Counted from the stretch's first letter, positions 38,315 through 63,065 are shown. The stretch: DNA of 64,000 bases from an uncultured Clostridia bacterium (GCA_964543295.1 CAZIXA010000008.1:4764-68763), one strand, 5' to 3'. Translations and numbers: made by a program. Notes: generated from the sequence alone by a model not told the origin.

Positions 38315-38320
38315 GGACAC

Positions 38321-42024: not shown

Positions 42025-42027
42025 AAA

Positions 42028-43113: not shown

Positions 43114-43119
43114 GCCGGG

Positions 43120-44242: not shown

Positions 44243-44602
44243 TTGAGTATTTTAGGTTTAAGAACGCTGTTAAGGTATGCGATACTTTTCTGTCTTGTAG
44301 TAACTCTGAACGGAGCTGATATTGGAATACTTCTAAGAGAGAAAAATATAATCAACGTTGCAGTATGTCTAACAAAATTTGTTGAATATGTCACTTGTGG
44401 TCTTTACGTTATATTGACAGAGAAAATAGGAGATGTATCTGGAATAGCCGGGAAAGAAAAAATCGATGAAGTTGTAAAAAGTTCATTAGAGGAAAGCGAG
44501 ATGAAGTCAGTAGTGAATAAAATCTTGGCAAAGAGGGTGGAAATTCAGAAAAAAGGAAATAAAGAAAGAATCGCACAGTTTGTACAAGCTAAATATAGTT
44601 GA
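44243..44602 (+). CDS. hypothetical small protein
   Basis: 119-aa ORF. Confidence 0.25.
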   Translation: MSILGLRTLLRYAILFCLVVTLNGADIGILLREKNIINVAVCLTKFVEYVTCGLYVILTEKIGDVSGIAGKEKIDEVVKSSLEESEMKSVVNKILAKRVEIQKKGNKERIAQFVQAKYS

Positions 44603-44668
44603 AAAAACTTAATGGCTACATTTCGGAAAAACTTATGAATATTTATTTAAGAAAACCGGTTTAGAATA

Positions 44669-45742
44669 ATGAAAATACTTATGCTTGTGAATTGGAGAAT
44701 TCACTATTTATCTAAAGATAGGGAAGACATTCAACCACCAGACAAATTTGTAGAAGGCCATAAATACTGGTTTTTTAGACATTGGCAAAGTAGCAATGTT
44801 CAGGTAGATGTTATAGATTGTATAAAGTTACCATTCTTTTATTACATCGAGAAGGAAAAGCTAAAGTTCTATATATTCCAGTCTATTAAAGGATTAATAA
44901 GATCTAAGAAGTACGATCTTATAATTTCTCATGGAGCTCAGAGTGCGGTTTTCTTGGCTTTTATGCGGAGTTTCATTAACAAAAAAGACCCTCCTCATAT
45001 TGTAATAGATGTTGGTTGTTTTAACGGGGGAAGAGATGGCAAGATCGAAATTTCTCTCATTAAATTTGTGGCAAGATCCTTAGCTGGAGTAGTATATCAT
45101 GCTTCCATTCAAAGGGAATATTACAGAACACATTTACCCTTTTTGTTAAAAAGGAGTCGATTTATTCCTTGTGGGGTTGATACCGAATTTTTTCAGCCCC
45201 TGGATATTGAAAAAGATGATTGTGTAGTTTCTATAGGATATGCGAAAAGAGACTACCATACTCTTTTAAAGGCGTGGAGGAAACTCTCTTCCGTAGGCAC
45301 AAAATTGAAAATTATCGGCATCAATAACTCTCAAGAGTTAGATGTGACAGATTTTTCTTCTGATGTAGAACTATTCGGTATGGTTCCTATAAATAAACTG
45401 AAGGATATAATCGCAAAATCAAGATTTGTTGTTCTCCCACTACCATATTATAAACATGCCTATGGACAGATGACTTTGCTTCAGTGTATGAGTATGGGAA
45501 AAGTGGTAATTGTTACAAAAACACCCAGTACAGTAGATTACATTGCAGATGGTAAAAATGCATTATTTGTGCAGCCATACGATGTGGATGATATGAGGAG
45601 AAAGATAGAATTTTTGTTAGCTAATTCTTTGCTCGCCATAACGTTAGGAAAAGAAGCAAGGAAAGCTGTGGTGCGAAGGTTTAATGAGAAAATTATGGCT
45701 CAAAATATTTATAACTTCATCTGTGAAGTAATCAGATGCTAA
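44669..45742 (+). CDS. glycosyltransferase (GT4-like)
   Basis: 357 aa; position/size in locus; GT-B-like C-terminus. Confidence 0.5.
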   Translation: MKILMLVNWRIHYLSKDREDIQPPDKFVEGHKYWFFRHWQSSNVQVDVIDCIKLPFFYYIEKEKLKFYIFQSIKGLIRSKKYDLIISHGAQSAVFLAFMRSFINKKDPPHIVIDVGCFNGGRDGKIEISLIKFVARSLAGVVYHASIQREYYRTHLPFLLKRSRFIPCGVDTEFFQPLDIEKDDCVVSIGYAKRDYHTLLKAWRKLSSVGTKLKIIGINNSQELDVTDFSSDVELFGMVPINKLKDIIAKSRFVVLPLPYYKHAYGQMTLLQCMSMGKVVIVTKTPSTVDYIADGKNALFVQPYDVDDMRRKIEFLLANSLLAITLGKEARKAVVRRFNEKIMAQNIYNFICEVIRC

Positions 45743-46728
45743 AGCAAGAATATACGAATTGTAATCTCTGCAGTAAGGATGACAATATTTTGTGTTTTCA
45801 AGTAGAAGAGAAGATTACTGGGGCAAGAGAGAAATTTAGAGTTGTAAAGTGTAGAAATTGCGGATCGGCATATGTTAATCCGAGGCCATCGAAAACTATT
45901 ATGTCAAGGTATTATCCTAAAGAGGATTATTATGCTTATCGTCCCTATGAGACCGAAAAAAAATCGTTTAAACAAAGGATTAAGGAAATAATAATGGAAC
46001 ATATTGGTAATTATCCGAATAAAAACGAGGAAAAGTTTTGGGTAAGATGGATAGGAAAGTTTATAGCCCAAACGTGGAAAAATAGTGTAAGTGTAGTTGT
46101 TCCTTATAAAAAGGGAGGAAGGGTCTTGGATTTAGGATGTGGAGCAGGAAACCTGTTGGATTGGTTAAAGAGACACGGCTGGCAAGCATACGGAGTAGAA
46201 ATCTCTAAGCAAGCAGTAGAATACGGAAAAAAACACGGATCAAATATATTTAATGGGGAACTAGTTGAGGCTAAATTTCCTCAAGAATTTTTCGATGCTG
46301 TTGTGATTAACCAAGTACTCGAGCATCTTTATGATCCCAAAGGGATCTTATGGGAAGTCTATCGTGTATTAAGGCCGGGTGGGCTACTGATTGTAGGAGT
46401 TCCTAATATTGAATCTTATGAAAGTAAAGTTTTTGGAGAGTATTGGAGTCCATTAGATATTCCTAGGCATCTCTACCACTTTTCTTACGAGACTTTAAAA
46501 ACTATGCTTCAAAACGCGGGCTTTATCGTCGGAAAAATGGTAGGGAAAACTTTTTTCATTCCTTATTCTAATAGAGCAAGCTTAAACTCTTTAAAACAAG
46601 GAAGGGACAAATGGAAGTTGCTTGTGTGTTTCCTTAAAGTCTATTTCTGGAAGTATATTCAATATATTTTTTCTAACCGAAAAGACCTCTTTGGGGAATT
46701 TATCACGTTTTATGCGAGGAAAAGATAA
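45736..46728 (+). CDS. zinc-ribbon + class I SAM-dependent methyltransferase
   Basis: CNLCSK..CRNCGS; VLDLGCGAGNLL. Confidence 0.6.
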   Translation: MLKQEYTNCNLCSKDDNILCFQVEEKITGAREKFRVVKCRNCGSAYVNPRPSKTIMSRYYPKEDYYAYRPYETEKKSFKQRIKEIIMEHIGNYPNKNEEKFWVRWIGKFIAQTWKNSVSVVVPYKKGGRVLDLGCGAGNLLDWLKRHGWQAYGVEISKQAVEYGKKHGSNIFNGELVEAKFPQEFFDAVVINQVLEHLYDPKGILWEVYRVLRPGGLLIVGVPNIESYESKVFGEYWSPLDIPRHLYHFSYETLKTMLQNAGFIVGKMVGKTFFIPYSNRASLNSLKQGRDKWKLLVCFLKVYFWKYIQYIFSNRKDLFGEFITFYARKR

Positions 46729-46759
46729 AACAAGAGATATTGCATAAGAGTAATAGAGA

Positions 46760-48157
46760 ATGGTTGACAACATTATTCTAATTTTGTTTCTTTCCACGCT
46801 CGGTATTTCCTTTGCGGCTATTATTCTTACGCACTGGGATTGGATGCCAGTAATGCTGCTGCCAATTCTGTGGTATATGCCGCGACAAACAGCTTCAGGC
46901 GGTCTATTAGAAAATTATCTAATTCTAAGGTGGACAACCGTTTTTATTATACCTTTAATTATCTTTATCCAATTTATTAAAGTGACTGAAAAGTCGCAAT
47001 CTCTGAAACTAAGTAATATTGCATTACCTTTAGGAATATTTATAGTTTTTTCTGTTTGTTCAGCAATTTTCAATAATGTTACACCTTTTGAGCTCTTAGG
47101 AAGTTTAATTCTATATATCAGATATCCATTGCTCTTTATTGCTTTTATTAACATGGACATTCCAAAGAACGTTGTGAAAGTTTTTTCTCGGCTCTTTTTA
47201 TTTCTTGTCGCAATACAAATTCCTGAATGTATTTATCGCTATGCAGTATTAGGCGTTAAATGGGATCATATTTCATGGACAATGGGACCATGGGGTACTT
47301 TAGACCTCGGGGTTTACATGATTTATGCAGTTGCCTTGGTTATCGCATTTAGTCTTACAAAAGGACTCAAATGGAGCCATTTTGCACTTTTCGCTCTTTT
47401 CTTTATGATAGCTTTGCTCGGTGAGATCAAAGCGTTCATTTTTTCGGCTCCAGTTGTTTCTGTATTTACTGTTTATGCTGTGTTACAACAAAAACAAGTA
47501 CCAAATCAAAAACAAGGATCAAAGCGTCTACTTGCAGTATTATTACCAGTGTTTTTTTTAATTTTGTTCTATTGTTGTACCTCTGGTATCTGGGAAAAAA
47601 TCCACTATGGTAGCAGCAATACTCTTACATCCTCCCTGCAAAATCTTCTAGCGATTCTTAAGCATCCGTTATCGTTTGTACAGAGCGATGAAATGGCCTA
47701 TTCTATGCCTAGAATTAGTGGCGGTGTATTTATTTGGAACTACTTGAGAAAAGACTGGCATATGTTAATGTTTGGTTTAGGTTCAGGTAGTGCACTTGCT
47801 GGTACTTTTTTGGGAAGGCCCGGAAAACTATTTGAAATGTTAGACAGTTCTCCCCTGTATTTAAATCAAATAGGGGCAATTTTAGCAGAAGTGGGCATAA
47901 TAGGATTATCTCTTTATTTCTGGATGTTAATAAGGCTATTACGCACGATACTGAGAGCGAACATCTCAATTGAAGATACTAATCTACGCATCCTTTGTGC
48001 AAGTTTAGTTGGTATGTGGGTTTTCTATGCCGTTCTCGGTCCTTTCTATGATTTAGTTTGGCGACACGATGCTCCCAACTACATTTTCTACTTTTTTGCC
48101 GCAGTTATATATAATTATTTGCAAAATAAACATACATTTTTAAGTCATCCAAAATAA
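46760..48157 (+). CDS. Wzy-like O-antigen/oligosaccharide polymerase (polytopic membrane protein)
   Basis: 465 aa, >10 TM, large loop; locus context. Confidence 0.45.
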   Translation: MVDNIILILFLSTLGISFAAIILTHWDWMPVMLLPILWYMPRQTASGGLLENYLILRWTTVFIIPLIIFIQFIKVTEKSQSLKLSNIALPLGIFIVFSVCSAIFNNVTPFELLGSLILYIRYPLLFIAFINMDIPKNVVKVFSRLFLFLVAIQIPECIYRYAVLGVKWDHISWTMGPWGTLDLGVYMIYAVALVIAFSLTKGLKWSHFALFALFFMIALLGEIKAFIFSAPVVSVFTVYAVLQQKQVPNQKQGSKRLLAVLLPVFFLILFYCCTSGIWEKIHYGSSNTLTSSLQNLLAILKHPLSFVQSDEMAYSMPRISGGVFIWNYLRKDWHMLMFGLGSGSALAGTFLGRPGKLFEMLDSSPLYLNQIGAILAEVGIIGLSLYFWMLIRLLRTILRANISIEDTNLRILCASLVGMWVFYAVLGPFYDLVWRHDAPNYIFYFFAAVIYNYLQNKHTFLSHPK

Positions 48158-48206
48158 GTCTGGATAGTGAGTTGGAATTTGTGCCAGATTTCATAGAATC
48201 TATACA

Positions 48207-49448
48207 ATGATAGTGAATATTCTCCTGGTTAACAAATTTTTTTATCTTAGAGGTGGTAGTGAGAGAGTATTTCTTGAGGAAGCAGATTTACTGAAAAGGA
48301 ATAGGCATCAGGTAGCTTTCTTTTCTATGTTTGATAAAAGAAATTTATCTTGTCCTCAAAGTAAGTACTTTATTGACCATATAGACTATGAAACACCTGT
48401 AAAAAATATTAAACCTAAAATCTTACAGAGTCTGAAAATGCTTTATTCTTTTGAAGCAAAGGAGAAAATAGAGGAACTACTAAATGATTATCAAATAGAT
48501 ATTGCTCATCTGCATAATATCCATCACCAAATATCTCCATCAATTTTAGATGTGTTTGTAAAATATAAGGTGCCAACTGTAATGACGTTACACGATTATA
48601 AATTAGTTTGTCCTTCATACTCTATGCTTACGGACGGAAAACCTTGCGAGAAGTGCAAGAATGGAAAGTATTTTTGGTGCTTTCTTAAAAAGTGCACCAA
48701 GGATTCTTATGCGAAAAGTTTACTTAACGTAGTAGAAATGTACCTGCATCATAAAATTCTTCACATTTACGACAAAATAGATGTTTTTATCTCTCCAAGC
48801 ATATTTTTGAAGAAAAAACTAAAAGAAGTGGGATTTAAAAAAGAGATAGTTCATTTGCCTAATTTTATTAATGCAAAAGATTATTTGCCAAAGTACAGCT
48901 TCAATGAGAAGATAATTTGCTATTTTGGAAGACTTTCGGAAGAAAAAGGGCTTTTTACACTGCTTGAAGCGGTGAAAGGAATAGATATAAAATTAAAAAT
49001 TGTTGGTGATGGGCCAATAAAAGAAAATTTAAAGTTTAAAGTGAAAAGTGAAAAATTAGATAATGTTGACTTTTTAGGATATAAATCAGGGAGAGAATTG
49101 GAAAATGAAATCAAACGCTCTATGACGGTAGTTCTTCCTTCTGAATGTTATGAAAATAATCCCAGGATAGTTTTAGAAGCGTTTGTATTAGGTAAACCAG
49201 TGATTGGTTCAAAAATTGGCGGTATTCCAGAATTGGTGCAGGATGGGAAGACGGGCTTAACTTTTGAGCCAAGAAACATAAGTGATTTAAGAAATAAGAT
49301 TGAGTATTTGGTGAACAGTCCCGATAAAATAAGTAAAATGGGAAAAAATGCAAGAAAATTTGTTGAAAAAAATTTTAACCCAGAAAAACATTATCAAGAA
49401 TTAATGAGAATTTATCAAATGGCGATGGAGAAATACAGATGGAGTTAA
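48207..49448 (+). CDS. glycosyltransferase family 4
   Basis: ECYENNPRIVLEAFVLGKPVIGSKIGGIPE. Confidence 0.7.
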   Translation: MIVNILLVNKFFYLRGGSERVFLEEADLLKRNRHQVAFFSMFDKRNLSCPQSKYFIDHIDYETPVKNIKPKILQSLKMLYSFEAKEKIEELLNDYQIDIAHLHNIHHQISPSILDVFVKYKVPTVMTLHDYKLVCPSYSMLTDGKPCEKCKNGKYFWCFLKKCTKDSYAKSLLNVVEMYLHHKILHIYDKIDVFISPSIFLKKKLKEVGFKKEIVHLPNFINAKDYLPKYSFNEKIICYFGRLSEEKGLFTLLEAVKGIDIKLKIVGDGPIKENLKFKVKSEKLDNVDFLGYKSGRELENEIKRSMTVVLPSECYENNPRIVLEAFVLGKPVIGSKIGGIPELVQDGKTGLTFEPRNISDLRNKIEYLVNSPDKISKMGKNARKFVEKNFNPEKHYQELMRIYQMAMEKYRWS

Positions 49449-49963
49449 TGGATAAGCAAGAAAGAGAGCGATTATTCAAACAAGAATTAGCCCGCATTAT
49501 TGATAGCGTTATTAACCAACGCAAGCCTAAAAATAATACCTTTGGTTTACTGGCTAAGGGGAAAATAAATGAGTGGAGCGATATAACCTTCTTATGATTA
49601 AAGATAGCTCGAAAAGGCAAGTCGATAGATGTGTGGAAGTAGCGGAACTAACAGGCCCAAAAGTTGGAGTAGGTCTTTTCATATATAGCCGACGGAATAC
49701 GAAATTCCTTTAAACGAGAGATTTTCTTTTCTGCTAAGTATTTTAAAAGACGGAAGAGCTTTATATGAGAAAGGACGTTGGAGTATGGCTTAAACATTGC
49801 TAAATAATACTTGTACAAGTCCAAGGTTTATTTGTACGATGTGTCCTATTAAAAATTATGGCACTGGCCCGATGGATTAAATTGTAAGCGGCAATAATTA
49901 CGACCTATAGATGTACGAATAATTGCGGAATTCATATTTATATATGAGGGGCCAAGACAAGAG

Positions 49964-50974
49964 ATGAAAAATATAGTCCAAGGAAGTCTTATTGTAACTT
50001 ATAGGTGTAATGCTAAATGTCAGATGTGCGAAATATGGAGACATCCAACAAAGCCATCTGAAGAGTTACACCCCAAATACTATGAAAAATTACCTTCAGG
50101 TTTGCGAATTAATATCACAGGTGGCGAACCTATGTTAAGAGATGATATTGAGGAGATTTTTGGAATTCTTTACCCCCACGCATATCTTTTGGAATTAAGT
50201 ACAAATGGTTATTTTACAGATAGAATAATACATCTTGCTGAGAAATATCCGAATATTCTAATCCGTGTGAGTGTTGAAGGATTACCAGGGCTTAATGATA
50301 AATTACGAGGTATTCCAAATGGTTTTGACCATGCCCTCAGGACAATTTTAGAATTGAAAAAGACCAAGTGCAAAAATATTGGTTTTTCTATTGTAATTTC
50401 GCCACAAAATGTATATGACCTTCTCCCTCTATATGAATTGTGTTGCTATTTAGGAATAGAACTGGGAAATTCAGCAATGCATAACTCATGGTATTTTCAC
50501 AAAGCGGATAATGTAATAGCAGGTGATAAAAAAGCATGGGAAATAGAAGCTGAATTTATAAAGGTACTTCTACGGTCGCCTCGTAGAGGGACAAAAAATA
50601 AGTTGAAAGACTATGCTCGAGCATACTTTAATCTAAGTATCTTGAAAAGGTTACGCGGTGACCCACGGGGTTATCGTCCACCATGTGGAGCAGGAACGGA
50701 CTTCTTTTTTGTTGACCCCTTTGGAAACATTACTCCTTGTAATGGTTCGGATGAGGAATGGATAATGGGTAACCTAAGGGATAATTCTTTTGAAAATATT
50801 ATGAATTCGGAAAGAGCTAAAGAAGCAATGAAGAAAGTCAAATCGTGTGAAAAGGAATGCTGTTTTGTTGTTACTGAGCGGCATGATATGGTTCGTAACC
50901 TCTGGAAGCCAATTTACTGGATTACGAAAAACAAAATCAAATTAGGATTAAAAATCCTGAGGGATTTTAGCTAA
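49964..50974 (+). CDS. radical SAM enzyme with C-terminal Cys-rich SPASM/twitch-like domain
   Basis: CNAKCQMC (Cx3Cx2C); C-terminal CGAG..C..C...C. Confidence 0.65.
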   Translation: MKNIVQGSLIVTYRCNAKCQMCEIWRHPTKPSEELHPKYYEKLPSGLRINITGGEPMLRDDIEEIFGILYPHAYLLELSTNGYFTDRIIHLAEKYPNILIRVSVEGLPGLNDKLRGIPNGFDHALRTILELKKTKCKNIGFSIVISPQNVYDLLPLYELCCYLGIELGNSAMHNSWYFHKADNVIAGDKKAWEIEAEFIKVLLRSPRRGTKNKLKDYARAYFNLSILKRLRGDPRGYRPPCGAGTDFFFVDPFGNITPCNGSDEEWIMGNLRDNSFENIMNSERAKEAMKKVKSCEKECCFVVTERHDMVRNLWKPIYWITKNKIKLGLKILRDFS

Positions 50975-50975
50975 T

Positions 50976-52091
50976 ATGGAAATTAATGTCGTTGGTATAA
51001 GAGGTTTTCCCAATATTCAAGGCGGTGCAGAAAAGCATTGTGAGGAGCTTTACCCTCGTTTAGTTAAGTTAGGATGTAATATTACGGTTTTTAGCCGAAC
51101 TCCTTATTTTACGAAGGAAAAGAGTTTAAGAAAATGGAAGGGTGTGAAATTTGTTTATCTCTGGTGTCCTAGAACTAAAAGTCTCGAAGCCGTCATGCAC
51201 ACACTTTTAGCTTCTCTGATTTGTATATTTAAGCGTCCTGATATTGTTCATATACATAATATTGGTCCTGGAATATTAATACCATTGTTAAAAATGGCCA
51301 AACTTAAGGTAGTGTTGACATATCATAGCGTCAACTACGAACATCAGAAATGGAGTGAATTTGCCAAAATTGTTTTGAAGATGAGTGAATTTGTAAGTAT
51401 GAAATTTGCCGATAAAATCATAGTGATTTCCAAAGCGATAAAGAACTTGCTGACAAATAAATATAACAGAGAAGATTTAGAATTAATTTTTAATGGCGTA
51501 AATTTTCCAGAAAAGATTTCAACCACAGAGATTCTGGAAAAATACTACCTTTCATCTCGCCAATATGTATTTACCGCTGCTCGTTTTGTGCCTGAAAAGG
51601 GACTGCATGACCTAATTGGTGCCTATCAGGAGATCAAAAATCCAGAATTTAAGTTAGTCATAGCTGGCGACGCTGACCATGAAACTATATATAGCAGAAA
51701 AATCAAGGCATTAGCAAAGAAGAGTGAAAAGATTATTCTTACCGGGTTTATTTCTGGCAATCCCCTCACTGAGCTTTTTTCAAATGCTGGTTTGTTCGTT
51801 TTACCCTCATATTATGAAGGATTACCAATAGCATTATTGGAAGCTTTAAGTTATGGCCTTCCAGTGCTTATAAGTGATATTCCTGCCAACAAGGAAATGC
51901 CTTTACCTGAATTTAGGTTTTTCCCGGTTGGGAATATAGATAAACTATCTAAAAAAATGACTGAGTTATTCAAATCTGGGATTCCTGAAGAAGAAAGACA
52001 AAGGCAGCAAGAAGTGCTTGTACGAGACTATAATTGGAATAAGATAGCAAAACAAACATTTAAGGTTTATGAAAAAGTGCAAAAGAGTTAG
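50976..52091 (+). CDS. glycosyltransferase family 4
   Basis: YYEGLPIALLEALSYGLPVLISDI. Confidence 0.7.
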   Translation: MEINVVGIRGFPNIQGGAEKHCEELYPRLVKLGCNITVFSRTPYFTKEKSLRKWKGVKFVYLWCPRTKSLEAVMHTLLASLICIFKRPDIVHIHNIGPGILIPLLKMAKLKVVLTYHSVNYEHQKWSEFAKIVLKMSEFVSMKFADKIIVISKAIKNLLTNKYNREDLELIFNGVNFPEKISTTEILEKYYLSSRQYVFTAARFVPEKGLHDLIGAYQEIKNPEFKLVIAGDADHETIYSRKIKALAKKSEKIILTGFISGNPLTELFSNAGLFVLPSYYEGLPIALLEALSYGLPVLISDIPANKEMPLPEFRFFPVGNIDKLSKKMTELFKSGIPEEERQRQQEVLVRDYNWNKIAKQTFKVYEKVQKS

Positions 52092-52158
52092 GAACTGCCG
52101 AAAAAGAGTAAGACTATTTTTTTTCTCTGGTTGGTCAGGAAAGAATTGATAAAGAAAT

Positions 52159-52217
52159 GGTTCAATTAGTTCGATTGGTTCAACTGGTTCTATTAGTTTG
52201 AGTGGTTTAATTGGGTG
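52159..52217. repeat. 9-bp tandem repeat (GGTTCAATT-like, ~6.5 units)
   Basis: ggttcaatt agttcgatt ggttcaact ggttctatt agtttgagt ggtttaatt gggtgg. Confidence 0.6.
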
Positions 52218-52519
52218 GAAGAGGCTACACAATGTTTAGAAAGGCGGTATGTTTAGTTTCTTTAATTGCTTTTTACGTTGCTGCTTTATTCTCATCCCTC
52301 TTTTTGGCCTACATAATCAGAGAAGAGATTCTTTTTTATATTCATCCTGCTTTCAGAATGACAACCTTTCCCTTTGAGACCTACCTGGTAAACTATCCTT
52401 ACTTTCTCGGTCTCTGGGTGGTGATTCTTGCTTATGAGAGCCTTTGTACCAAAAGATTTATCCTGGGAGAGGGAAAAGAGGATCAAAGAATTAAGAAGCA
52501 AAACAAAAAGCAGGATTAG
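52211..52519 (+). CDS. small membrane protein
   Basis: 102 aa, 2-3 TM. Confidence 0.3.
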   Translation: MGGRGYTMFRKAVCLVSLIAFYVAALFSSLFLAYIIREEILFYIHPAFRMTTFPFETYLVNYPYFLGLWVVILAYESLCTKRFILGEGKEDQRIKKQNKKQD

Positions 52520-52527
52520 AGGATTAA
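52507..52527. repeat. RAGGATTA octamer pair immediately upstream of wbaP start
   Basis: gcaggattagaggattaaag. Confidence 0.5.
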
Positions 52528-52531
52528 AGAG

Positions 52532-53977
52532 ATGAAGATACCCAAAAGTAAAAGAAGAATTAGGTTGCTTTATTTAGCTGTTGATTTTTTCTTTATCTTC
52601 CTTTGCTTTTGGTCTTTTTACTTTTACCGTTATTTTAAGGGGAATTTTTGGGATGGGGTTAAGTATTTCTTTTCCCCTCAGTTTAATTCCCTTCCCTTAT
52701 TTAATGAGTACCTCAGCTTATTTTTCTTCCTTTGTATTACCATTTTTTTCTCCCTTCAAAATTACGGGCTTTATGGAACAACGCGGGGACGTTCACTGAC
52801 CAATGAGGTATTTTGCGTCTTTAAAGCAGTTGCCTTTTCGAGTATGTTGAGTATCGCCCTTGTCTTTATAGCCAAATTTCACGGCGTTTCTCGCTTAGTA
52901 TTTTTTCAATTCGTCCTCTCCATAGCATTTTTTCTCTCCATCTGGCGAGTTCTTAAACGCTGGTATGTAGAAGATTTGGTAGCCTCGGGTTATAACAATC
53001 AAAATGTTTTAATCGTTGGAGCAGGGCAAGCAGGCAAGTCCTTAGCTCAGGAGTTGTCTAAGCAACAGCATCTAGGATTAAAAGTCATAGGTTTTTTAGA
53101 CGATCATAGAAAAACTGAAGAGCATACATCCAAAGGAAAAATATTAGGAAAGACGAGCGAGTTAGAAAGAATTGTTAATGAAAAATTTATTGATCAGGTC
53201 TCTATTACTTTTCCCCTACAGAGGGGATTAGCAAATAAAATAATATCCCAGGCAAGAAAGTTAGGAGTGGGAGTGAAGATAATACCCGAGTATTTTGAAA
53301 ACTCTACCAGTAGACTTGATATTAGTTATATAGGTAGGATTCCCCTTCTTGAATATTATGGTAAGCCTGAATTAGAAGCGGAATTGATGATCAAACGACT
53401 TATAGATATAGTTTTTTCTTTTGTGGGATTGTTGATTCTTTCACCACTTTTTATAGCAATAGCTATCTTAATTAAATTGGACAGTCCAGGGCCGATATTT
53501 TATGTTTCCCCTCGAATAGGAAGAAAAGGAAAAATATTTAAGTTTTACAAGTTTCGTTCAATGTATGCCGGTGCGGAAAAGGATTTAGATAAATTATCAG
53601 AGAGGAATGAAAAAGACGGACCTATTTTTAAGATGGAAAATGACCCTCGTGAAACTAAAATAGGAAGATTTATAAGAAAATATAGCATAGATGAGTTGTC
53701 ACAGCTATGGAATGTGTTAAAAGGGGATATGAGTCTGGTGGGACCAAGGCCTCCTACTCCTTCGGAAATAGACCGCTATAAAGATTGGGAATTAAAAAGG
53801 GTAAATGTAATTCCTGGTATGACCTCTCCATATGTAATTCAAGGGAGAAGCAATTTATCCTTCGGGGAATGGGTGAGGTCGGATCTTGATTATATTGAAA
53901 ACTGGTCCTTAGGGTTGGATTTAAAGATTTTATTAAAAACGGTGCCGGCGATAATAAAAGGGGAAGGAGCATACTAA
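52532..53977 (+). CDS. wbaP: WbaP/CpsE-type undecaprenyl-phosphate hexose-1-phosphate transferase (initiating PGT)
   Basis: 481 aa; N-terminal TMs, CoA-binding-like middle domain, bacterial sugar transferase C-domain (DLSQLWNVLKGDMSLVGPRP). Confidence 0.75.
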   Translation: MKIPKSKRRIRLLYLAVDFFFIFLCFWSFYFYRYFKGNFWDGVKYFFSPQFNSLPLFNEYLSLFFFLCITIFFSLQNYGLYGTTRGRSLTNEVFCVFKAVAFSSMLSIALVFIAKFHGVSRLVFFQFVLSIAFFLSIWRVLKRWYVEDLVASGYNNQNVLIVGAGQAGKSLAQELSKQQHLGLKVIGFLDDHRKTEEHTSKGKILGKTSELERIVNEKFIDQVSITFPLQRGLANKIISQARKLGVGVKIIPEYFENSTSRLDISYIGRIPLLEYYGKPELEAELMIKRLIDIVFSFVGLLILSPLFIAIAILIKLDSPGPIFYVSPRIGRKGKIFKFYKFRSMYAGAEKDLDKLSERNEKDGPIFKMENDPRETKIGRFIRKYSIDELSQLWNVLKGDMSLVGPRPPTPSEIDRYKDWELKRVNVIPGMTSPYVIQGRSNLSFGEWVRSDLDYIENWSLGLDLKILLKTVPAIIKGEGAY

Positions 53978-54039
53978 AAAAGCAGGATTAAAGGATTGGA
54001 GGGAAAAAGCAAAAAACTGAAAAGAAGGATTATAGGGGA

Positions 54040-54200
54040 ATGAAGCATGTAAAGGCGGTAATTTTAGCAGCCGGAGAGGGAACCAGAAGAGCTTGCGGGT
54101 AGAGGCATTGAGAGTAAATGACCCTACTATTGCCTTAGGAGTCAACACAAGGAAAGACCTTAGGCGAGTGATTCAGATAATGAAGGAGAAAAGGCAGCAA
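54040..54200 (+). pseudogene. internally deleted sugar-phosphate nucleotidyltransferase remnant
   Basis: MKHVKAVILAAGEGTR then frame break, resuming ..NDPTIALGVNTRKDLRRVIQIM (GlmU/RmlA-like C-terminal segment). Confidence 0.4.
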
Positions 54201-54275
54201 CTGAAAAGGCAGGATTAGAGGGATAGAGGATTAGAGGATTAAAAAGCAAGAAAAAGGCAGGATTAGAAAGATAGG
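54199..54275. repeat. array of RAGGATTA-like octamers
   Basis: ggcaggattagagggatagaggattagaggattaaaaagcaagaaaaaggcaggattagaaagataggatt. Confidence 0.5.
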
Positions 54276-54281
54276 ATTTTC

Positions 54282-54809
54282 TTGACAAGGGTCTTTGGTC
54301 TGATAGCAGGAGAGGGCGAAGAAATAAATACAAGAATGAATCACCGTTTAAGAGCACATGCTATTGGGATATTATACTGGATTCCTGCCATCCTCTGGAT
54401 CGTCTTAATTGTTCTTTCCGGCTCCCCCTACGGAGCTTTTCTGGGTAAAAAAGTCCGGCAGCTAACCCATACTTCCTGGATTGTGAAGGGTATATTTCAT
54501 ATAGGAGAATTTGCTATTCTCACTATCCTTGTTTTTGTCGCCCTTAACATTAAAAAGAAGAAGCTAAACTTAGAAAAAGCTCTCCTGTACGCAGTAATTA
54601 CCAGTTTCGGGGTGGCTTTCTTTTCCGAATTTGAGCAATTCGTTTTTTCCTCTTTTTGTCTATTTGAGTGGAATGATCTGTTTATGAATGTGGTAGGAAT
54701 AGGACTGATAACTTTACTATTCTACCTTACAGGAGTTAGAGGTTTTTCTTATGAAAGCCTTTCTTCTGGCGGTAGGAGAAGGGACAAGACTAAGGCCTCT
54801 CACCAATAA
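54282..54809 (+). CDS. polytopic membrane protein
   Basis: 175 aa, 4-5 TM. Confidence 0.35.
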   Translation: MTRVFGLIAGEGEEINTRMNHRLRAHAIGILYWIPAILWIVLIVLSGSPYGAFLGKKVRQLTHTSWIVKGIFHIGEFAILTILVFVALNIKKKKLNLEKALLYAVITSFGVAFFSEFEQFVFSSFCLFEWNDLFMNVVGIGLITLLFYLTGVRGFSYESLSSGGRRRDKTKASHQ

Positions 54810-55023
54810 AATTCCTAGGTGCCTGGTCCCCATTAAGCGAAAGTCACTCCTGCACTACTGGCTAAGGTTGTACGAGGGATACGGCATCAGGGAGATGCTG
54901 ATCAACCTAGGCCATTTGCCTCATCTGGCAAAGGAATTCCTGGATAATGGTTTCTACAGGCTTGAGATTAAGACATTCTATGAGGAAAAACTGTTAGGAA
55001 GTGCAGGAAACCATTGGGGCTAA
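54751..55023 (+). pseudogene. truncated hddC-like nucleotidyltransferase (N-terminal 90 aa only)
   Basis: MKAFLLAVGEGTRLRPLTNKIPRCLVPI.. parallels HddC 33371 N-terminus, stops at aa 90. Confidence 0.5.
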
Positions 55024-55291: not shown

Positions 55292-58200
55292 CTAAAGATG
55301 GTCCCCTTTTATTTTATCACACACACTTTTCATATAATAACCAACTACAACTACTATTATAATTACTAAAATTGTTATCCATAATCCTAATCTACTTGGA
55401 GCTATAGGTATTTCTTCTTCCGGAGTTACCACTTCTTCCTCTTCTTCAGGTACTTCTTCTTCAGCTACTCTTTCAATTCTTTTAAATGTCAAATCTCCCT
55501 TACCATAACTAATCCCATCTAACGTAATTTCTAAATCATTCACCCCATCATTATCTAAATCAACTTCTTTACTTTCGTCTACCTTCACTGTAACCTCCAT
55601 TGGATCTGAACTTATTTCTAATACTACATAATCTTTACCAACCTCTTTTACCTTAACTGAATGAGCTACAGTATCAATTGTAAATGTTAAAGTACTATCT
55701 TTAGCCATTAACTTACTTGCTCCGTAATCTGTTAGCTCTCCTAAATCAATTGTTTTTCCAGTTCTAACAATTTCCTTAGCAATAGTTGTAGTCGTAAAAT
55801 AACTTGGTCTTTTATGTACCATAAATGTTTTTGAAACTGAAGCTGAATTTCCAGCATCGTCTGTTGCTGAGTAACTTACTGTGTATGTTCCTATTTCATC
55901 TGTGTCTGTAAAACTTTCTCCACACAAAGCTGATACAGATGAACCTTGTGGTTTTGTAACAGTTAAACTAGTAGAAAGTGAGCCATCATAATTATCACTA
56001 GAAGAACAAGAAATTACAGTTGAACGTCCTGTATATATTGATGTATCTGATAATAATAAAGAAACTGTTGGAGCTGTATTATCTACTTGAGCTTCAAATG
56101 TTATAGTAGGAAAACCTTCATCATAAGTAAAATTTATATAACCAGAAGCATTAGCTTGAAAAGCCTTCCAAAGAATTCCATTTTTATTTACTACAACTTT
56201 ATCTCCTGATGAAAAATTACCTATTGTATGATTTACTGTTGTCGACGAATTTGAGGCAGATTCGTTCCATTTTTTGTAGATGGTCGTGAAGTTTGAGACT
56301 GTTACGTTGATTGAGCTTGAGGATGGATAAATAGACATAATTTTTATTAAATTTATTGTATATGCTCCATGTTCTAAGTTAAGTGACAGCTTATTGGTAA
56401 CATTACCTGAACTATCAACAATATGCGACATCGAAGAGTTTTGAGACGTATTTTGATAATAATATACCCCGTAATCGAATGAATTAAGTTGGAATTTATT
56501 TGTTTTGTATCTTACAATACCATCATCAAAATATGATTGTGGTATTGTTACGTTGGCATTTATTGTAACTGTCTCTGCGTTAGGATTGTAATATGACGAA
56601 TCTATTTTGGTTTCGGCTCGTATTAATCTCGGATTGCTATTAGGTGTAGTTATGAATGTCGTATTTTTATTTTCCTCTGCAACAAACCATGTATAATTAT
56701 TATTATTGTCGTCGGTTGTATGGATATAGTAGATACTTTCATTACTTTCAGGATACACTAATCCCTTAACTCGGATCATTGCAGTTTCATTGACTTGAAT
56801 AGTCACCATACTTGCGTTATTATTAAATATTATTGTATTCACATCGTATTGTTGGGGGTACCTTTGATTGTAAATTTCGGTTTCATACGCAAAACGGTAA
56901 CCCTTTTCATAGAGGTCTTTTACAATATTGTTGCGAAAATTTCTATTTTGATTATCATTCCCGTGTGTTGATCCTAACAAGGGATAACCTGCATAAAGAT
57001 AAACTTCATACATCGCATCATATGCGTAAAGAGTGTAGCTGTCGCTAGCATCAAAATCAAAGGCTCTTGGTATGATTGCTGTGTTATTATACATGTTATA
57101 AAAGAGGTAATCCTTCGGGAAAGGGTCTCTAAAATTCTCATAGATTAGAAATCCTTTATCAGACCATATATGCATTGTGGTCTCACTTGATGACCAACCA
57201 GGTGTTGAATATCCAGGAAATAAACCATGTGTTATTACATGATTCCATGCTTCTGTTATATTACCGGCTAATGTCCCTTGATCATACATATCAATTTCGC
57301 TAAGATGGTCATACCCATGTGATTCTATTTCGATATTTCCTCCATATATGTATCCTAGACTATTCCATCTCGAACTGATATCTATTGGTGAAAGTATCCC
57401 TTGGCCAGTAGGATCGCCAGAAGGAACATCGTAAGTGAATTTATTTTCTGTGTATTGTGATACATTATTCATAAAATCACCTGTTAAATCTGTGAGATAA
57501 TCAAACCCACTTTGGCTATGCATGTGACAGGGCATTTGTGCTATGGGCGGCATCGGGACGATCATTACATTAATATAATTACTCAAAAATTTCCACATGC
57601 CATAACCAGATGCCCTGAAATACCAATTATAAGCACCAAATGCCGTGAAATCACTAAGAATCATTAACATTAGAACATCTGGATCTCCATTCATGTGTCC
57701 TATTGTCATCGATGGATATTTGTCTGAAGAATTTGTTTTGTTTATCACCCATACAAAAATACCATCATCGAAATCATCTGGAAAAGATTCATTATAATCC
57801 AACTTTAAATAAGTTAAAGCGGTTGCTGGCCTGTAACCAGTATCGTTTATATTCCGCTCAGAGACCGTTATATTTGTTTGATAGTCAGTACCTAAATTTT
57901 TATAGCTTGCTGCATAAGGGCCTCCAAACGCTGTATTTCTCCTCCAATTAATGTATTCAAATGAAGCGGTAGGACCAGTAATTACAGCTATTTTATTTGC
58001 TTTAGCGACATCATATATAGCTGAAAAGTCCATACCTCCATCTAGCCAAGCCTGCCATGCTACACCACCAGAAAATTGACTATCTACTATGATTACCTTA
58101 TAGTCAGCAAGTTTTGTATAATTGAAATTTGGGTCGCTAACATTATAACAGTCGACAGGAAGTGTTTGTAATACGCCCCTTTGCCAATCAGCATCTGTTC

Positions 58201-58411
58201 TATATAAATATTCAGCATTGTTGTAGTATAGTACCGCTATTTCATGACCCTTTGTGTTCTCAGAAATGTAAGGTGTAATTGGAGCACCAGCATTTCCGAC
58301 TCCACCAAATACAGCAAGGGATAAGAGAACTAAGGTGATGAAACCAACTCTTTCAATATTTTTCCAGAATTTGGACGGTATTCTAGTTTCCCCCAGGGAC
58401 TGTTCTGCCAT
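55292..58411 (-). CDS. large secreted cell-surface protein with acidic linker and C-terminal TM anchor; candidate S-layer/glycoprotein
   Basis: 1039 aa; N-terminal signal peptide; dozens of N-x-S/T sequons and Thr/Ser-rich stretches; ..EEEVPEEEEEVVTPEEE.. linker then LWITILVIIIVVVVGYY anchor; last ~12 codons lie in IS-associated repeat. Confidence 0.55.
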   Translation of the reverse strand: MAEQSLGETRIPSKFWKNIERVGFITLVLLSLAVFGGVGNAGAPITPYISENTKGHEIAVLYYNNAEYLYRTDADWQRGVLQTLPVDCYNVSDPNFNYTKLADYKVIIVDSQFSGGVAWQAWLDGGMDFSAIYDVAKANKIAVITGPTASFEYINWRRNTAFGGPYAASYKNLGTDYQTNITVSERNINDTGYRPATALTYLKLDYNESFPDDFDDGIFVWVINKTNSSDKYPSMTIGHMNGDPDVLMLMILSDFTAFGAYNWYFRASGYGMWKFLSNYINVMIVPMPPIAQMPCHMHSQSGFDYLTDLTGDFMNNVSQYTENKFTYDVPSGDPTGQGILSPIDISSRWNSLGYIYGGNIEIESHGYDHLSEIDMYDQGTLAGNITEAWNHVITHGLFPGYSTPGWSSSETTMHIWSDKGFLIYENFRDPFPKDYLFYNMYNNTAIIPRAFDFDASDSYTLYAYDAMYEVYLYAGYPLLGSTHGNDNQNRNFRNNIVKDLYEKGYRFAYETEIYNQRYPQQYDVNTIIFNNNASMVTIQVNETAMIRVKGLVYPESNESIYYIHTTDDNNNNYTWFVAEENKNTTFITTPNSNPRLIRAETKIDSSYYNPNAETVTINANVTIPQSYFDDGIVRYKTNKFQLNSFDYGVYYYQNTSQNSSMSHIVDSSGNVTNKLSLNLEHGAYTINLIKIMSIYPSSSSINVTVSNFTTIYKKWNESASNSSTTVNHTIGNFSSGDKVVVNKNGILWKAFQANASGYINFTYDEGFPTITFEAQVDNTAPTVSLLLSDTSIYTGRSTVISCSSSDNYDGSLSTSLTVTKPQGSSVSALCGESFTDTDEIGTYTVSYSATDDAGNSASVSKTFMVHKRPSYFTTTTIAKEIVRTGKTIDLGELTDYGASKLMAKDSTLTFTIDTVAHSVKVKEVGKDYVVLEISSDPMEVTVKVDESKEVDLDNDGVNDLEITLDGISYGKGDLTFKRIERVAEEEVPEEEEEVVTPEEEIPIAPSRLGLWITILVIIIVVVVGYYMKSVCDKIKGDHL

Positions 58412-58518
58412 TTTCTACACCTAAAATATCATAGATTAAATTTGTTATTTATAAATTTAACTGTTTTCGATATTGATTCAGTGTAAATTATTTCTACTCC
58501 TCTTTTCGTATTTCTATT

Positions 58519-59112
58519 GTGATGAAAAGAGGTGATTTATTGGAATGGTTGAAAAGATCTCCACGAAGAACAGCAGTTATAAAAGTAATGACAAAGCCTA
58601 AAATGCCTTCGGAGATTCACGAACAAGCTTCGAAAGGGGTTGTCTCTCTCAGTAACACATGCGAGATTCTAAAGGCATTGTTGGAAGAGGGTTTAGTAAC
58701 TTGTATCAATCCAAGGGAGAAAATTGGAAAGTTATATGGGCTCACAAAGACAGGGAGAGCGTTAAGAAAAAGGACATATCCTAATAAACCGAGTTATCAA
58801 GATATTCCCAACGACATTATGGAAGAGTATACCTACGTCGTACGGGGCAAGCATAGAAGGGCAGTAATTAAAGTAATTTATGATAGAAAAACACCTAGCG
58901 AAATACACAGGGATGTTGTAAAGGCCACTGAAAATGTATCTCCCGGCAGCATAAATTATGTAAAACTATCTCTCAATAGCACAAGCGATACCTTAAGGGG
59001 ATTTAGAAAGAAGGGTATTGCAATCTGCATCAATAAAGAAAAAAGAGTTGGAAGATTATATGAACTTACGAAGAAAGGTAAAGTGATAAGAGAGCAGATG
59101 CTGAGAGAGTAG
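58519..59112 (+). CDS. tandem-duplicated winged-helix DNA-binding protein (two ~95-aa repeats)
   Basis: repeats RRTAVIKVM.KP..PSEIH....G...KL.L and RRAVIKVIYDRKTPSEIHRDV.. ; divergent from the surface-protein gene. Confidence 0.45.
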   Translation: MMKRGDLLEWLKRSPRRTAVIKVMTKPKMPSEIHEQASKGVVSLSNTCEILKALLEEGLVTCINPREKIGKLYGLTKTGRALRKRTYPNKPSYQDIPNDIMEEYTYVVRGKHRRAVIKVIYDRKTPSEIHRDVVKATENVSPGSINYVKLSLNSTSDTLRGFRKKGIAICINKEKRVGRLYELTKKGKVIREQMLRE

Positions 59113-59445
59113 CTTGGCTCGACAAATTTCTACGAATTTTTTCTGATACAGAACAGATTTCTTTTTGATGAGTTTTTTTAAGAATACATTCCGTGTAAGT
59201 TTTTTAAATCATTAATATTACCACTTTAGAAAGAAAACACATCAGAGAAATGGTGAATCAAAATGTATGATGGCAATAAGCTGTACAGCCAATACAAAAA
59301 AGAAAAGGACGAACTTAAAGATCACCTTCCAGAATGGATTGGTATTCTGCAGGATTATTTTAGAAGAAACTATTATTCTTCATCTTCGAAACCCGGGGCT
59401 AAGAAAAGAAAAAGATAATGAATTCGAAATTATTTTGGCTCCAGC

Positions 59446-60783
59446 CTAAATCTCCATTAATTTCTTCGTCAAGCCAAGTTCTGAGAGAATCTCTGCCAAT
59501 TTCTTTACAGTCTTTGGATTTTTGGCTAAAGCAGTTATGATCTCATCAGAATTTTTCCTTTTCTCATCAAGCTCTATTGCGGTTTTTACATCTAGAACTT
59601 TGCTACATTTTTGGCAAAAAAGAGCGTCCTTAGAATTAATACCTCCACATGACTGACACTGTTTTGGTTTTAGAAGGCTTTCTTTTTCTTTTGTTTTCTT
59701 GATTCCGTGAATTTCCAGAATGGTGTTATTCACATCGCTTGAGAGAAGATGGGAATATTCAGAAAGCATCTTGCTTGAAGGAACCCAGCCAAAATAAACC
59801 TTGGCCTGGGCTTCGCTTATCTGTCTGTTAATCAAAAGATGAGTTACTCTCGTGTGCCGGAAGAGATGATGATAAAGCCTCTTTTTAATCTTAGCCTTTC
59901 TTTTGAGTCTTAGAATTAGTGCTCTAAAACTTCCGTATTTCATCTTTTCATTTTTATTTCTGTTTCCAGTCATAACCCATAAAGGAGATCGAGGATTATC
60001 TTTCCCGGGGTGCAGATTAAGCCAATTGGTAATGTAAGGATCAGATATAACTATTCTTGGAGTTCTATGACCAGTTTTTCCATTTAAATCAACTATGTAG
60101 CTATATCTATCTCTAGTAACGTCCTTGATTTGTAGAGAACCTATTTCTCCAATTCTAGCACCAAGTTCGTATAGCATAGAGACAAATGCTTTATCCCTCG
60201 GATATTCTGCAGCATCTATCAATCTTTTGATATCTTTTTCGGTGAGAATATCTGATGCCTGTACCTTTGGTTGATCCTTTTTCTTGACGTTGGTGTTAAT
60301 CCAACTTACAATTTTAGGATAATCATTTCTTTCTTTATAGTTATCTTTATACTTTAACCATTTGTAGAACTTCTTTAGTATTGCTCTATAGCCTTGCTTT
60401 GTCCAAACCGAATAATCTTCTCTTGATTCTATTTTGATAACAACTTCCTTTATATCTCTTTCAGTAGCTTTATCAAAATCCTTTTTCAGATATTGGCTTG
60501 CTAACATTAGGAGACTACTAATCAATTTAATTCTTCTGGGTTTGCTTAGTCCTTCTAAGAAACATGTCCTGTCAAAGTCTAAAATCAAATCTTTATTCTT
60601 TTCAGAGATGGTTGATTTCTTAACTCTTTCCAGAGCTGATTTATACTTAGTACTATAGTCATGGATATCTTTTGTAGGGATCATACTAATAGTGTAGATC
60701 CAACTAGTATATAAATCTTTCGGCTCTGAACTAGTTGTGCAACGCCCTGACCGGACGATGAACAACTTGTATGGATCCCACAA
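59446..60783 (-). CDS. tyrosine site-specific recombinase/integrase with C-terminal zinc ribbon
   Basis: 445 aa; R..HxxR..Y catalytic pattern (HHLFRHTRVT, ..KVYFGW); CQSCGG...CQKC. Confidence 0.7.
   Translation of the reverse strand: MWDPYKLFIVRSGRCTTSSEPKDLYTSWIYTISMIPTKDIHDYSTKYKSALERVKKSTISEKNKDLILDFDRTCFLEGLSKPRRIKLISSLLMLASQYLKKDFDKATERDIKEVVIKIESREDYSVWTKQGYRAILKKFYKWLKYKDNYKERNDYPKIVSWINTNVKKKDQPKVQASDILTEKDIKRLIDAAEYPRDKAFVSMLYELGARIGEIGSLQIKDVTRDRYSYIVDLNGKTGHRTPRIVISDPYITNWLNLHPGKDNPRSPLWVMTGNRNKNEKMKYGSFRALILRLKRKAKIKKRLYHHLFRHTRVTHLLINRQISEAQAKVYFGWVPSSKMLSEYSHLLSSDVNNTILEIHGIKKTKEKESLLKPKQCQSCGGINSKDALFCQKCSKVLDVKTAIELDEKRKNSDEIITALAKNPKTVKKLAEILSELGLTKKLMEI
60741..60775. repeat. 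R-family repeat R4, inside first 15 codons of integrase gene
   Basis: cgccctgaccggacgatgaacaacttgtatggatccc. Confidence 0.55.
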
Positions 60784-61189
60784 GACCGTTCGGTGAAATG
60801 CCCTACGAGGATACCCTAAACGTAATGAGTGTGCGAATGTTTCGGAGATTTCTCAAAAATGCAATTAGTTAGTTGGCTTGTTTCTGACATCGACGGTTAG
60901 GCAACTCTTTATCCATGAAACCTCGTCGAAAAACTCACGAAATGGCTATTTCACCTCTGTGTGACCGGGTGCTGTGGACGAACCTTACTATTATTTGTTC
61001 GGTGCTGTGACAAAATCCCTCTATCATAAGGAAGAAGGGTCTTACCTTGCATAAAGGTTTTTGCTTGGTTCAAACTGGGACCGCAGGAAGGCGTAAAAGA
61101 AGCTAAGGAAGTGTCAAAAGAATTTACGAGAAAATATTTTACACTGGGCCTATACTGAGAAACCTTGGAAAGAAGCAGGATATTTTGGC

Positions 61190-62910: not shown

Positions 62911-62951
62911 AGTCAATTATATACGAAATCAGCTTTTTGTTAAGTTTGAGG
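62911..62951 (-). promoter_or_regulatory. duplicated upstream element of AlbA_2 paralogs (copy 1)
   Basis: tcaattatatacgaaatcagctttttgttaagtttgagg vs 63681-63720 tcaattgtatacgaaattcgctttttgttaagtttgga. Confidence 0.4.
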
Positions 62952-63065
62952 GGATATATATGATCTTCGTATTGCCTTTCATTTTGTTTTATGGATAAAA
63001 GAAGTTGACGAAGGCAATTTAGATGTCAGCCGTTTATGCCCCGTTAAGCGAGGTACAGGGATCCG

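Follow-up and report, generated by a model that had tools for sequence, protein, structure and literature searches.

The closest described counterparts of the gene treated here encode S-layer-like surface proteins of DPANN archaea, among them MJ1_0299/0309/0707 of Nanobdella aerobiophila (10.1101/2023.10.27.564410). By their described architecture, these share with its product an N-terminal signal or anchor, many N-x-S/T sequons, immunoglobulin (Ig)-like domains and a single C-terminal transmembrane (TM) helix. Archaeal S-layer glycoproteins (Haloferax Csg with PGF-CTERM, the S_layer_N/S_layer_C proteins of Methanococcales, the DUF1608 proteins of Methanosarcina) are likewise exported, beta-rich proteins with many sequons and a C-terminal anchor. 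The gene lies in a 64,000-nucleotide stretch of DNA from an uncultured Clostridia bacterium (GCA_964543295.1 CAZIXA010000008.1:4764-68763; hereafter the window), where it stands between an exopolysaccharide (EPS) locus and a gene for a tandem winged helix-turn-helix (wHTH) protein. A preliminary description had joined the three as glycoprotein, glycan source and regulator. We consider it probable, though by no means certain, that the gene is instead a horizontally acquired, archaeal-type surface glycoprotein gene, carried as cargo in a hypervariable bacterial island and paired with neither neighbour.

The open reading frame (ORF) singled out as a sequon-rich surface protein of 1039 amino acids (aa) is present on the minus strand (55292-58411), and its product matches itself exactly in two assemblies, a 76.7-kb NCBI contig and a 32.8-kb Logan contig. 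A Kyte-Doolittle scan finds two hydrophobic segments, N-terminal at residues 22-45 and C-terminal at 1008-1030. The expected signal peptide has a plausible counterpart in the first: residues 1-43 are probably a Sec signal peptide, or else an N-terminal anchor left uncleaved, and GNAGA/P at the end of the segment is, on hydropathy and inspection, compatible with an AxA-type signal peptidase site. The acidic linker EEEVPEEEEEVVTPEEE (residues 983-999) precedes the second segment, which agrees with the linker and single C-terminal TM anchor described before. The claimed Ser/Thr-rich stretches are borne out weakly, by short runs (SSSS at 697, SSTT at 722, TTTT at 873).

The protein carries 27 sequons (N-x-S/T, x not P), for which the earlier word "dozens" was generous. 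Shuffling its own sequence 5000 times gave a mean of 13.9 (standard deviation 3.3), so the excess holds over its own composition (z=4.0, p=2e-4; observed/expected 1.95); the reversed control pattern [ST]-x-N occurs 10 times. The comparison with background that had been proposed as a check comes out the same way. Sequon density is 26.0 per 1000 aa against 3.8 in the 43 other window ORFs of at least 150 aa (14,659 aa; observed/expected 0.89), and 33% of Asn residues lie in sequons against 9.1% (Fisher p=3.6e-8). All 27 sites fall within residues 90-760 and the last 279 residues carry none. Bacterial PglB requires D/E at -2 (the extended sequon D/E-X-N-X-S/T). Just 2 of the 27 sites have D/E there (composition expectation 12%), so the PglB consensus is absent from the protein.

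A word-indexed search of the full protein against 5.8 billion proteins returned nothing beyond itself, and a scan of species-representative genomes with it gave no match. Exhaustive HMMER searching (phmmer) of 1.84 billion cluster representatives gave 1713 matches at E<=1e-3, of which 403 reach E<=1e-10; the best (E=1e-58) is 43% identical over residues 695-1028. The best 150 of the 1713 all align within residues ~586-1036, mostly 690-1028, and none of these 150 covers the head (44-690). Residues 44-680 matched nothing in Pfam (five segments, E<=10), NCBIfam, PDB (phmmer), PHROGs or PADLOC, and a single-sequence AlphaFold2 (AF2) model made without an alignment had a pLDDT of 32, unusable for the head. 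A polysaccharide-deacetylase-like fold, prompted by an 'HGYDH' motif in the head, found no other support and was rejected.

Modelled by AF2 with an alignment (A3), residues 681-1039 reach a pLDDT of 86. In the model, three all-beta domains (684-776, 782-866, 887-978) are followed by an acidic linker, which is disordered, and by a TM helix at 1008-1035. By Foldseek this part resembles stalks built of tandem Ig-like domains, as found in giant adhesins and in S-layer proteins (5irb, 2yn3, 4aq1, 8cka), and the middle domain has sub-threshold matches to Bact_surface_Ig-like, PKD and HYR. Homology spans the entire module, namely an Ig-like domain, an 'H-x-V...GESK-VD-DGxND' beta-sandwich, the acidic linker and the TM helix; 88 of the 149 relatives fetched cover residues 775-1025 as one stretch, and the order linker, TM, KKK at the C-terminus recurs among them. 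The window has another minus-strand ORF of similar length (21518-24634, 1038 aa). Paralogy between the two was considered and discarded, the second being a Type ISP restriction-modification enzyme (Type_ISP_C E=5e-83, with N6_Mtase and Eco57I).

Two relatives of the C-terminal module bear the source names Nanoarchaeota archaeon and Candidatus Nanoarchaeia archaeon. Two others, on contigs of 78 kb and 150 kb, adjoin S_layer_C-domain proteins, and one of these is also near a Trm5/Tyw2-type methyltransferase. Over the 149 relatives pooled, sequon density is 38 per 1000 aa (observed/expected 2.26). The names, the S_layer_C neighbours and the sequon density together identify a DPANN-type surface-protein architecture with a sequon excess common to the family. 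In a DPANN archaeal setting, N-x-S/T sites are expected to undergo N-glycosylation of the AglB type. The protein, with its orphan head, joins a known kind of archaeal surface protein through the homology of its C-terminal 350 aa. It differs from DPANN surface proteins in that its 650-aa head has no detectable relative, in the place of its gene beside an integrase on a bacterial-looking contig and in a cytoplasmic tail apparently derived from an insertion sequence (IS). It differs from archaeal S-layer glycoproteins in matching no S_layer_N/S_layer_C, DUF1608 or PGF-CTERM model of Pfam or NCBIfam at E<=0.01-0.1; its C-terminus, APSRLGLW..., is an anchor without the PGF motif. The S-layer-like glycoprotein architecture claimed earlier is supported in the exported and anchored layout, the sequon excess and the C-terminal family; no SLH or other S-layer family domain matched the protein.

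The region upstream of the gene (58.40-58.47 kb) contains the TATA-like motif TTTATAAA. Both elements reported there before are in place on the minus strand: TTTATAAATA at 58455-58446, 35-44 nt before the ATG, and the Shine-Dalgarno site AGGTG at 58422-58418, 6 nt before it. GTTAAA-TTTATAAATA (58461-58446) could be read as an archaeal promoter with a B recognition element (BRE) and TATA box; the best sigma-70-type match within 58412-58463 reaches just 9/12. The whole upstream region, TATA-like motif included, lies outside a conserved block that begins at 58464, on its variable side.

This boundary is defined by 34 loci with a close wHTH homologue, drawn from homologue contigs, species-representative genomes and a metagenome scan. 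DNA similarity starts at 58464 (+/-2) in 31 of the 34, and the block that follows (block A) is found in all of them. The junction is sharp (TTTTCGATATTGATTCAGTGTAAAT...) and reads TT(T/C)TC(A/G)ATATTGATTCAGTGTAAAT, with a TCAATATTGA-type palindrome. Wherever a locus reaches far enough to the right, block A leads to a convergent tyrosine integrase and then to block C. Two integrase types occupy this place, one 80-94% identical to that of the window (most loci) and one 26-30% identical; block C is kept with both and is multi-copy in some loci. The left flanks are unrelated between loci and form 15 groups, or 16 with the window's own. Their cargo is mostly type IIG/III restriction-modification genes and methyltransferases, with an adenosine deaminase, XRE and TPR proteins and some uncharacterised proteins. 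Proteins adjacent to the junction elsewhere have 0-11 sequons per 1000 aa, none of them sequon-rich, and tblastn found no relative of the 1039-aa protein in 37 related loci. The position of the gene is not conserved, and the wHTH gene belongs to the integrase block. In locus L024 (7433-9670), PEGA-domain and Big_7 Ig-domain proteins occupy the slot beside the junction; surface proteins are therefore occasional cargo of the hotspot.

The wHTH ORF (58519-59112, plus strand, 197 aa) does encode the internal tandem winged-helix duplication that had been described. Its halves are 34% identical (E=2e-17), and each has weak winged-helix matches (EarA, HTH_45, PadR, HVO_A0261_N); Sso10a is also among the wHTH families matched. 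The EarA (PF07381) match scores 23.1 bits against a cutoff of 22, with no single stretch passing alone, and 2 of the 48 wHTH homologues (61-87% identity) carry a precomputed PF07381 label. The family profile matches a MarR structure at E=0.005. These weak winged-helix matches are what the protein has in common with EarA-like and MarR-type regulators; it differs from them in being duplicated within one chain and in being linked with an integrase rather than with an operon for an archaellum or surface protein. Its proposed role as regulator of the surface protein gene is not supported: the wHTH gene is the first of the integrase block in 34 loci, and the edge at 58464 separates the two genes. 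Because the block is conserved while the left neighbour varies and is never a relative, we regard the wHTH protein as part of the integrase module and not as a regulator dedicated to the surface protein gene. It may bind DNA nearby. No integrase is linked to a distant wHTH relative on an Elusimicrobia contig (L010), and a scan of viral contigs with the wHTH alignment gave no match.

The integrase has XerA_Arch as its best NCBIfam model, and its 15 plasmid matches among 72,556 plasmids are all haloarchaeal. Two wHTH-integrase loci are binned as Aenigmatarchaeota and Sifarchaeum; in the one labelled Aenigmatarchaeota (L008, 10923-13562) the integrase gene is split by ~1.3 kb between residues 188 and 189. 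The system is not an integron: its TIGR02249 score of 24.9 bits is below the cutoff of 265, and the repeats of the right flank would be read as promoter plus palindromic box, not as attC. A tRNA as integration target was not found, and Rfam gave no match on the whole window. With integrase-anchored islands and defence hotspots the system shares a conserved integrase module, a sharp junction, variable cargo dominated by restriction-modification genes and near-empty sites (L008 and L030). It differs from them in three respects: (i) the integrase resembles XerA and haloarchaeal enzymes, has a zinc ribbon and is always preceded by the tandem-wHTH gene and the small ORF; (ii) two unrelated integrase types use one scaffold; (iii) no second copy of the 58464 junction, as a flanking att duplication would give, was found in the window.

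The left limit of the variable interval is marked by an exo/endonuclease/phosphatase-family gene, which lies left of the block in seven configurations with 60-81% aa identity. Similarity stops at its stop codon. The distance from there to the junction is 0.12 kb in the near-empty loci L008 and L030, 0.8, 2.2, 2.3 and 9.4 kb elsewhere, and 37.9 kb here. In the window, the genes for the Type ISP restriction enzyme and the surface protein lie within this interval (~20.55-58.46 kb), as does the glycan locus in its entirety.

The glycan locus is of a bacterial, Wzx/Wzy-dependent type. It encodes a YjbH-like protein, a split TolC-like OEP, a Wzc-like co-polymerase/tyrosine kinase (Wzz-GNVR tyrosine autokinase, TIGR01007 above cutoff), GDP-heptose enzymes, Wzx, VanZ, five GT4 and one GT2 glycosyltransferases, three methyltransferases, a radical SAM/SPASM protein, an 11-TM Wzy candidate and a WbaP-like EPS phosphoglycosyltransferase (TIGR03025 above cutoff, 428 bits). 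The GDP-heptose set comprises an SIS protein, a GHMP kinase closest to HddA, a HAD protein and a nucleotidyltransferase closest to HddC. The Wzx/Wzy/WbaP heptose-glycan locus named in the preliminary description is thus recovered in its Wzx, WbaP-like and GDP-heptose parts; Wzy is not confirmed. The 11-TM protein (46760-48157) has no family match and would most simply be the Wzy polymerase. Wzc and outer-membrane export parts are typical of free exopolysaccharide, and a Wzx/Wzy-type locus with both is predicted to export its polymer. At 32429-38314 and 49964-50974 the locus joins GDP-heptose genes with genes for a transaldolase/FSA-type enzyme, a flavin amine-oxidase-like protein, three SAM methyltransferases and the radical SAM/SPASM protein, which suggests that the glycan may be a heavily modified, methylated heptose-containing polymer. 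At 27669-29104, overlapping ORFs of 225 and 253 aa are paralogous TolC-like halves (OEP match, internal repeat D3), either a split gene or an unusual two-gene TolC.

The GDP-heptose pathway has a known bacterial precedent in the heptose-containing S-layer O-glycan of Aneurinibacillus thermoaerophilus. The window locus has the same four-enzyme activation set (GmhA/HddA/GmhB/HddC, for GDP-D-glycero-D-manno-heptose). The case here differs in the absence of SLH domains from the protein and of a detected WsaB/PglL-type transferase, in the presence of Wzc and outer-membrane parts in the locus, and in an apparent IS scar between gene and locus. Among window ORFs of at least 150 aa, there was no match to an STT3/PglB/AglB or Wzy_C/PglL-type enzyme.

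The scar lies between the glycan locus and the surface protein gene, where a truncated sugar-nucleotidyltransferase gene abuts a putative N-terminal fragment of an IS21-family transposase (IstA; score 23 bits, cutoff 160). Two direct repeats of 28 bp (55259-55286 and 55300-55327) lie immediately beyond the start codon of this fragment. IS21-family ends carry multiple terminal repeats, and from their position the 28-bp repeats would be such ends. The outer copy encodes the end of the surface protein: relatives finish in (K/R)KK straight after the TM helix, where the 1039-aa protein has SVCDKIKGDHL (alignment A3). A tblastn search of plasmids with the IS fragment gave no match. Since a truncated gene and an apparent IS21 scar intervene and a probable IS repeat encodes the last 11 residues, the adjacency of gene and glycan locus is most simply secondary, and we infer no functional link between the two.

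The backbone of the window looks bacterial and diderm. This evidence can be summarised as (i) TrkH is 63-75% identical to proteins of Poribacteria, WOR-3, Planctomycetota, Sedimentisphaerales and Proteobacteria, with no archaeal name in the best 120 matches; (ii) in the left part, sigma-70 matches of 11-12 of 12 are rightly placed before the major facilitator superfamily (MFS), histidine kinase and HU-like genes, and a bidirectional intrinsic terminator with a 14-bp stem follows the MFS gene; (iii) the window has three HU-like genes and OEP, YjbH-like and Wzc-like proteins, and related loci have HU and TonB_C; (iv) each gene right of the integrase follows a conserved TTAACA-16-TATAAT element. 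Since the backbone looks bacterial while the protein is archaeal-type, horizontal acquisition is the most likely history, and a bacterial host with archaeal-type acquired genes the most likely reading.

Several observations weigh against this account. The taxonomy of the host comes from the labels of metagenome-assembled genomes (MAGs) and from similarity, not from marker genes. The loci labelled Aenigmatarchaeota and Sifarchaeum, with the archaeal-looking integrase, mean that the right end of the contig could be archaeal DNA. Composition fails to mark the gene as foreign to its neighbours, because its G+C content at third codon positions (GC3, 0.24) is like that of the central, low-GC glycan genes and there is no tetranucleotide break at the gene. 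No intact IS copy, IstB or second end was found to accompany the repeats that we read as IS ends. The 11-TM protein could in principle be an O-oligosaccharyltransferase instead of Wzy.

We propose that the gene was acquired from an archaeal-type donor into an island that mostly collects restriction-modification genes, where it would now be strain-specific cargo at the edge of the variable interval, in no operon or regulon with its neighbours. IS21 would then have inserted at the very 3' terminus of the gene, clipping it, and a later deletion would have removed most of the IS together with the 3' part of the nucleotidyltransferase gene, fusing the remnants. The protein would leave the cytoplasm via Sec and be held as a type-I protein by its C-terminal helix, with the beta-sandwich stalk keeping the ~650-aa head off the membrane. 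Its sequons would be a legacy of the donor lineage, in which N-glycosylation is presumed, and are not evidence for glycosylation by the adjacent locus. A more specific version of this history is tentative and, in our estimate, rather doubtful. It holds that the wHTH gene, small ORF and archaeal-type integrase form a site-specific cargo-capture hotspot of uncultivated sediment bacteria at the TCAATATTGA-type palindrome, which, besides restriction-modification systems, captured an intact DPANN surface glycoprotein gene with its BRE/TATA-like promoter in a recent archaea-to-bacteria transfer by a domain-crossing integrase family.

Two other explanations are unlikely, to about the same degree. One is that the contig is wholly archaeal, or an assembly chimera in which archaeal DNA (55.3-64 kb) was joined around 55.0-55.3 kb, and that the protein is a resident archaeal surface glycoprotein. 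Everything from the gene rightwards has archaeal affinities (the C-terminal module, the integrase, the EarA/HVO_A0261_N/Sso10a families, the MAG labels, the BRE/TATA-like motif), and two 3'-truncated genes abut at 55020. However, both assemblies, NCBI (76.7 kb) and Logan (32.8 kb), contain the same join. The exo/endonuclease-phosphatase and HU-like genes moreover recur on other contigs to the left of the wHTH-integrase block, which places the two sides of the suspected join in a single kind of genome. TonB_C and HU in related loci, TTAACA-16-TATAAT in the right-hand cassettes and the lack of a compositional break also speak against it.

The other would make the protein a native bacterial envelope protein, an adhesin or enzyme of the periplasm or surface tethered to the inner membrane, whose sequons are a by-product of Asn/Ser/Thr-rich beta-sandwiches and whose archaeal labels are binning noise. 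An intact ORF with a good Shine-Dalgarno site, a GC3 like that of neighbouring genes, the frequency of Ig-like stalks in bacterial adhesins and the PEGA and Ig-domain proteins in the same slot of L024 would all suit it. It is opposed by a sequon excess that exceeds the protein's own composition and is family-wide, by relatives that adjoin archaeal S-layer-type genes, and by the failure to find a full-length or head relative in the best 150 of the 1713 matches or in the 37 loci. Less probable still is the pairing first suggested, an S-layer-like glycoprotein that accepts the heptose glycan of the adjacent locus under control of the divergent wHTH protein: truly enriched sequons, a GDP-heptose set as in Aneurinibacillus, convergence with the glycan locus, divergence from the wHTH gene and an 11-TM protein that could be a ligase or O-oligosaccharyltransferase speak for it, but it has to contend with the truncated gene and IS21 scar, the Wzc and outer-membrane export parts, the absence of STT3/Wzy_C matches, of SLH or S-layer domains and of PglB-type extended sequons, a wHTH gene conserved with the integrase over 34 loci and a gene promoter outside that block.

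Other elements of the island recur between loci. A promoter-like TTAACA-16-TATAAT element occurs in 11 copies over the window, L002 (x4), L005, L006 and L008 (x3). As part of a ~40-120 bp element it precedes each gene right of the integrase, here two of AlbA_2/Schlafen type; its CGAAATTCG palindrome is invariant, and a second, ACGAAnTTCGT-like box lies ~40 bp away. With its palindromes it looks like a shared promoter and operator. A different repeat of ~150 bp (...TATCAAGAGAATTTTATCAAGCCAGTTGTGGGATAGAGGGATTT..., then a Shine-Dalgarno site) lies upstream of several small genes on the plus strand, left of the block (window 17809-17995 and 18272-18406; L006 3394-3571, 4333-4480 and 4754-4903) and has no Rfam match. 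The three small HU/IHF-like genes (11175-11471, ~11600-11891, ~13500-13778) have common C-terminal coding repeats, and a ~78-bp repeat lies downstream of them (11949, 12370, 13831); HU-like genes are also near the wHTH block in L008, L014 and L024. Both flanks of the block abound in defence-type genes (window 62350-62871 and 63066-63665, minus strand; L002, L004, L008, L013, L014): AlbA_2/Schlafen, SIR2_2, Mrr_cat, DUF4062-HEAT, PIN/MazE, DpnII-MboI, ADP-ribosylglycohydrolase and Cas4-like DUF2779.

Table 1 Coordinates of the surface protein gene, its parts and the surrounding features in the window.
Feature	Position	Strand	Basis
Surface protein gene, 1039 aa, intact ORF; predicted exported and C-terminally anchored	55292..58411	-	ORF call, sequence matches, sequon statistics
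Residues 1-43: charged n-region, hydrophobic core 22-39, GNAGA/P end	58283..58411	-	Hydropathy and inspection
Residues 44-690: orphan head, 19 of 27 sequons	56342..58282	-	No match in Pfam, NCBIfam or PDB
Residues ~691-982: three beta-sandwich (Ig/PKD-like) domains, stalk	55466..56341	-	HMMER, AF2, Foldseek
Residues 983-1028: acidic/Pro linker (EEEVPEEEEEVVTPEEE...) and TM anchor (LGLWITILVIIIVVVVGYYMK)	55328..55465	-	Hydropathy, AF2 helix, layout of relatives
Last 11 codons (SVCDKIKGDHL) and stop, from outer copy of 28-bp direct repeat	55292..55327	-	Repeat and alignment A3
Upstream region of the gene, variable (cargo) side	58412..58463	-	Sequence
Block A: tandem-wHTH gene (58519/58522-59112) and most of small ORF (59216-59449)	58464..59376	+	blastn
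Tyrosine integrase with C-terminal zinc ribbon, convergent with wHTH gene	59446..60783	-	Phage_integrase E=9e-18
Block C, non-coding, upstream of integrase, ~200 bp	60970..61170		Conserved across loci
Putative IS21-family transposase (IstA) N-terminal fragment, ~70 aa	55020..55232	-	NCBIfam transpos_IS21 E=3.8e-5, profile 2-48/294
Sugar-nucleotidyltransferase gene, truncated (3'), broken end of glycan locus	54751..55023	+	NTP_transferase profile 1-87/245, E=1.6e-9
Bacterial-type Wzx/Wzy-dependent exopolysaccharide locus	26586..54809	+	Profile searches
Exo/endonuclease/phosphatase-family gene, left anchor of variable interval	19606..20553	+	aa identity to other loci
Promoter-like repeat TTAACA-16-TATAAT, CGAAATTCG-type palindrome in spacer, upstream of AlbA_2 gene; second copy 63682-63722	62912..62952	-	Repeats across loci

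Had the glycoprotein come with a dedicated glycan locus and regulator, the set would have made a handy model system; that pairing is unsupported. The sequon excess is better seen as a lineage imprint, which flags an archaeal N-glycosylating background though the other proteins of the window show none. The integrase hotspot, which recurs in 34 loci with a sharp boundary and 16 sets of cargo, is a more unusual object than the surface protein gene and merits a study of its own. The gene itself is a candidate case of surface-protein transfer across domains. If the cargo-capture reading is true, it would represent a recent transfer of a cell-surface protein from archaea to bacteria.

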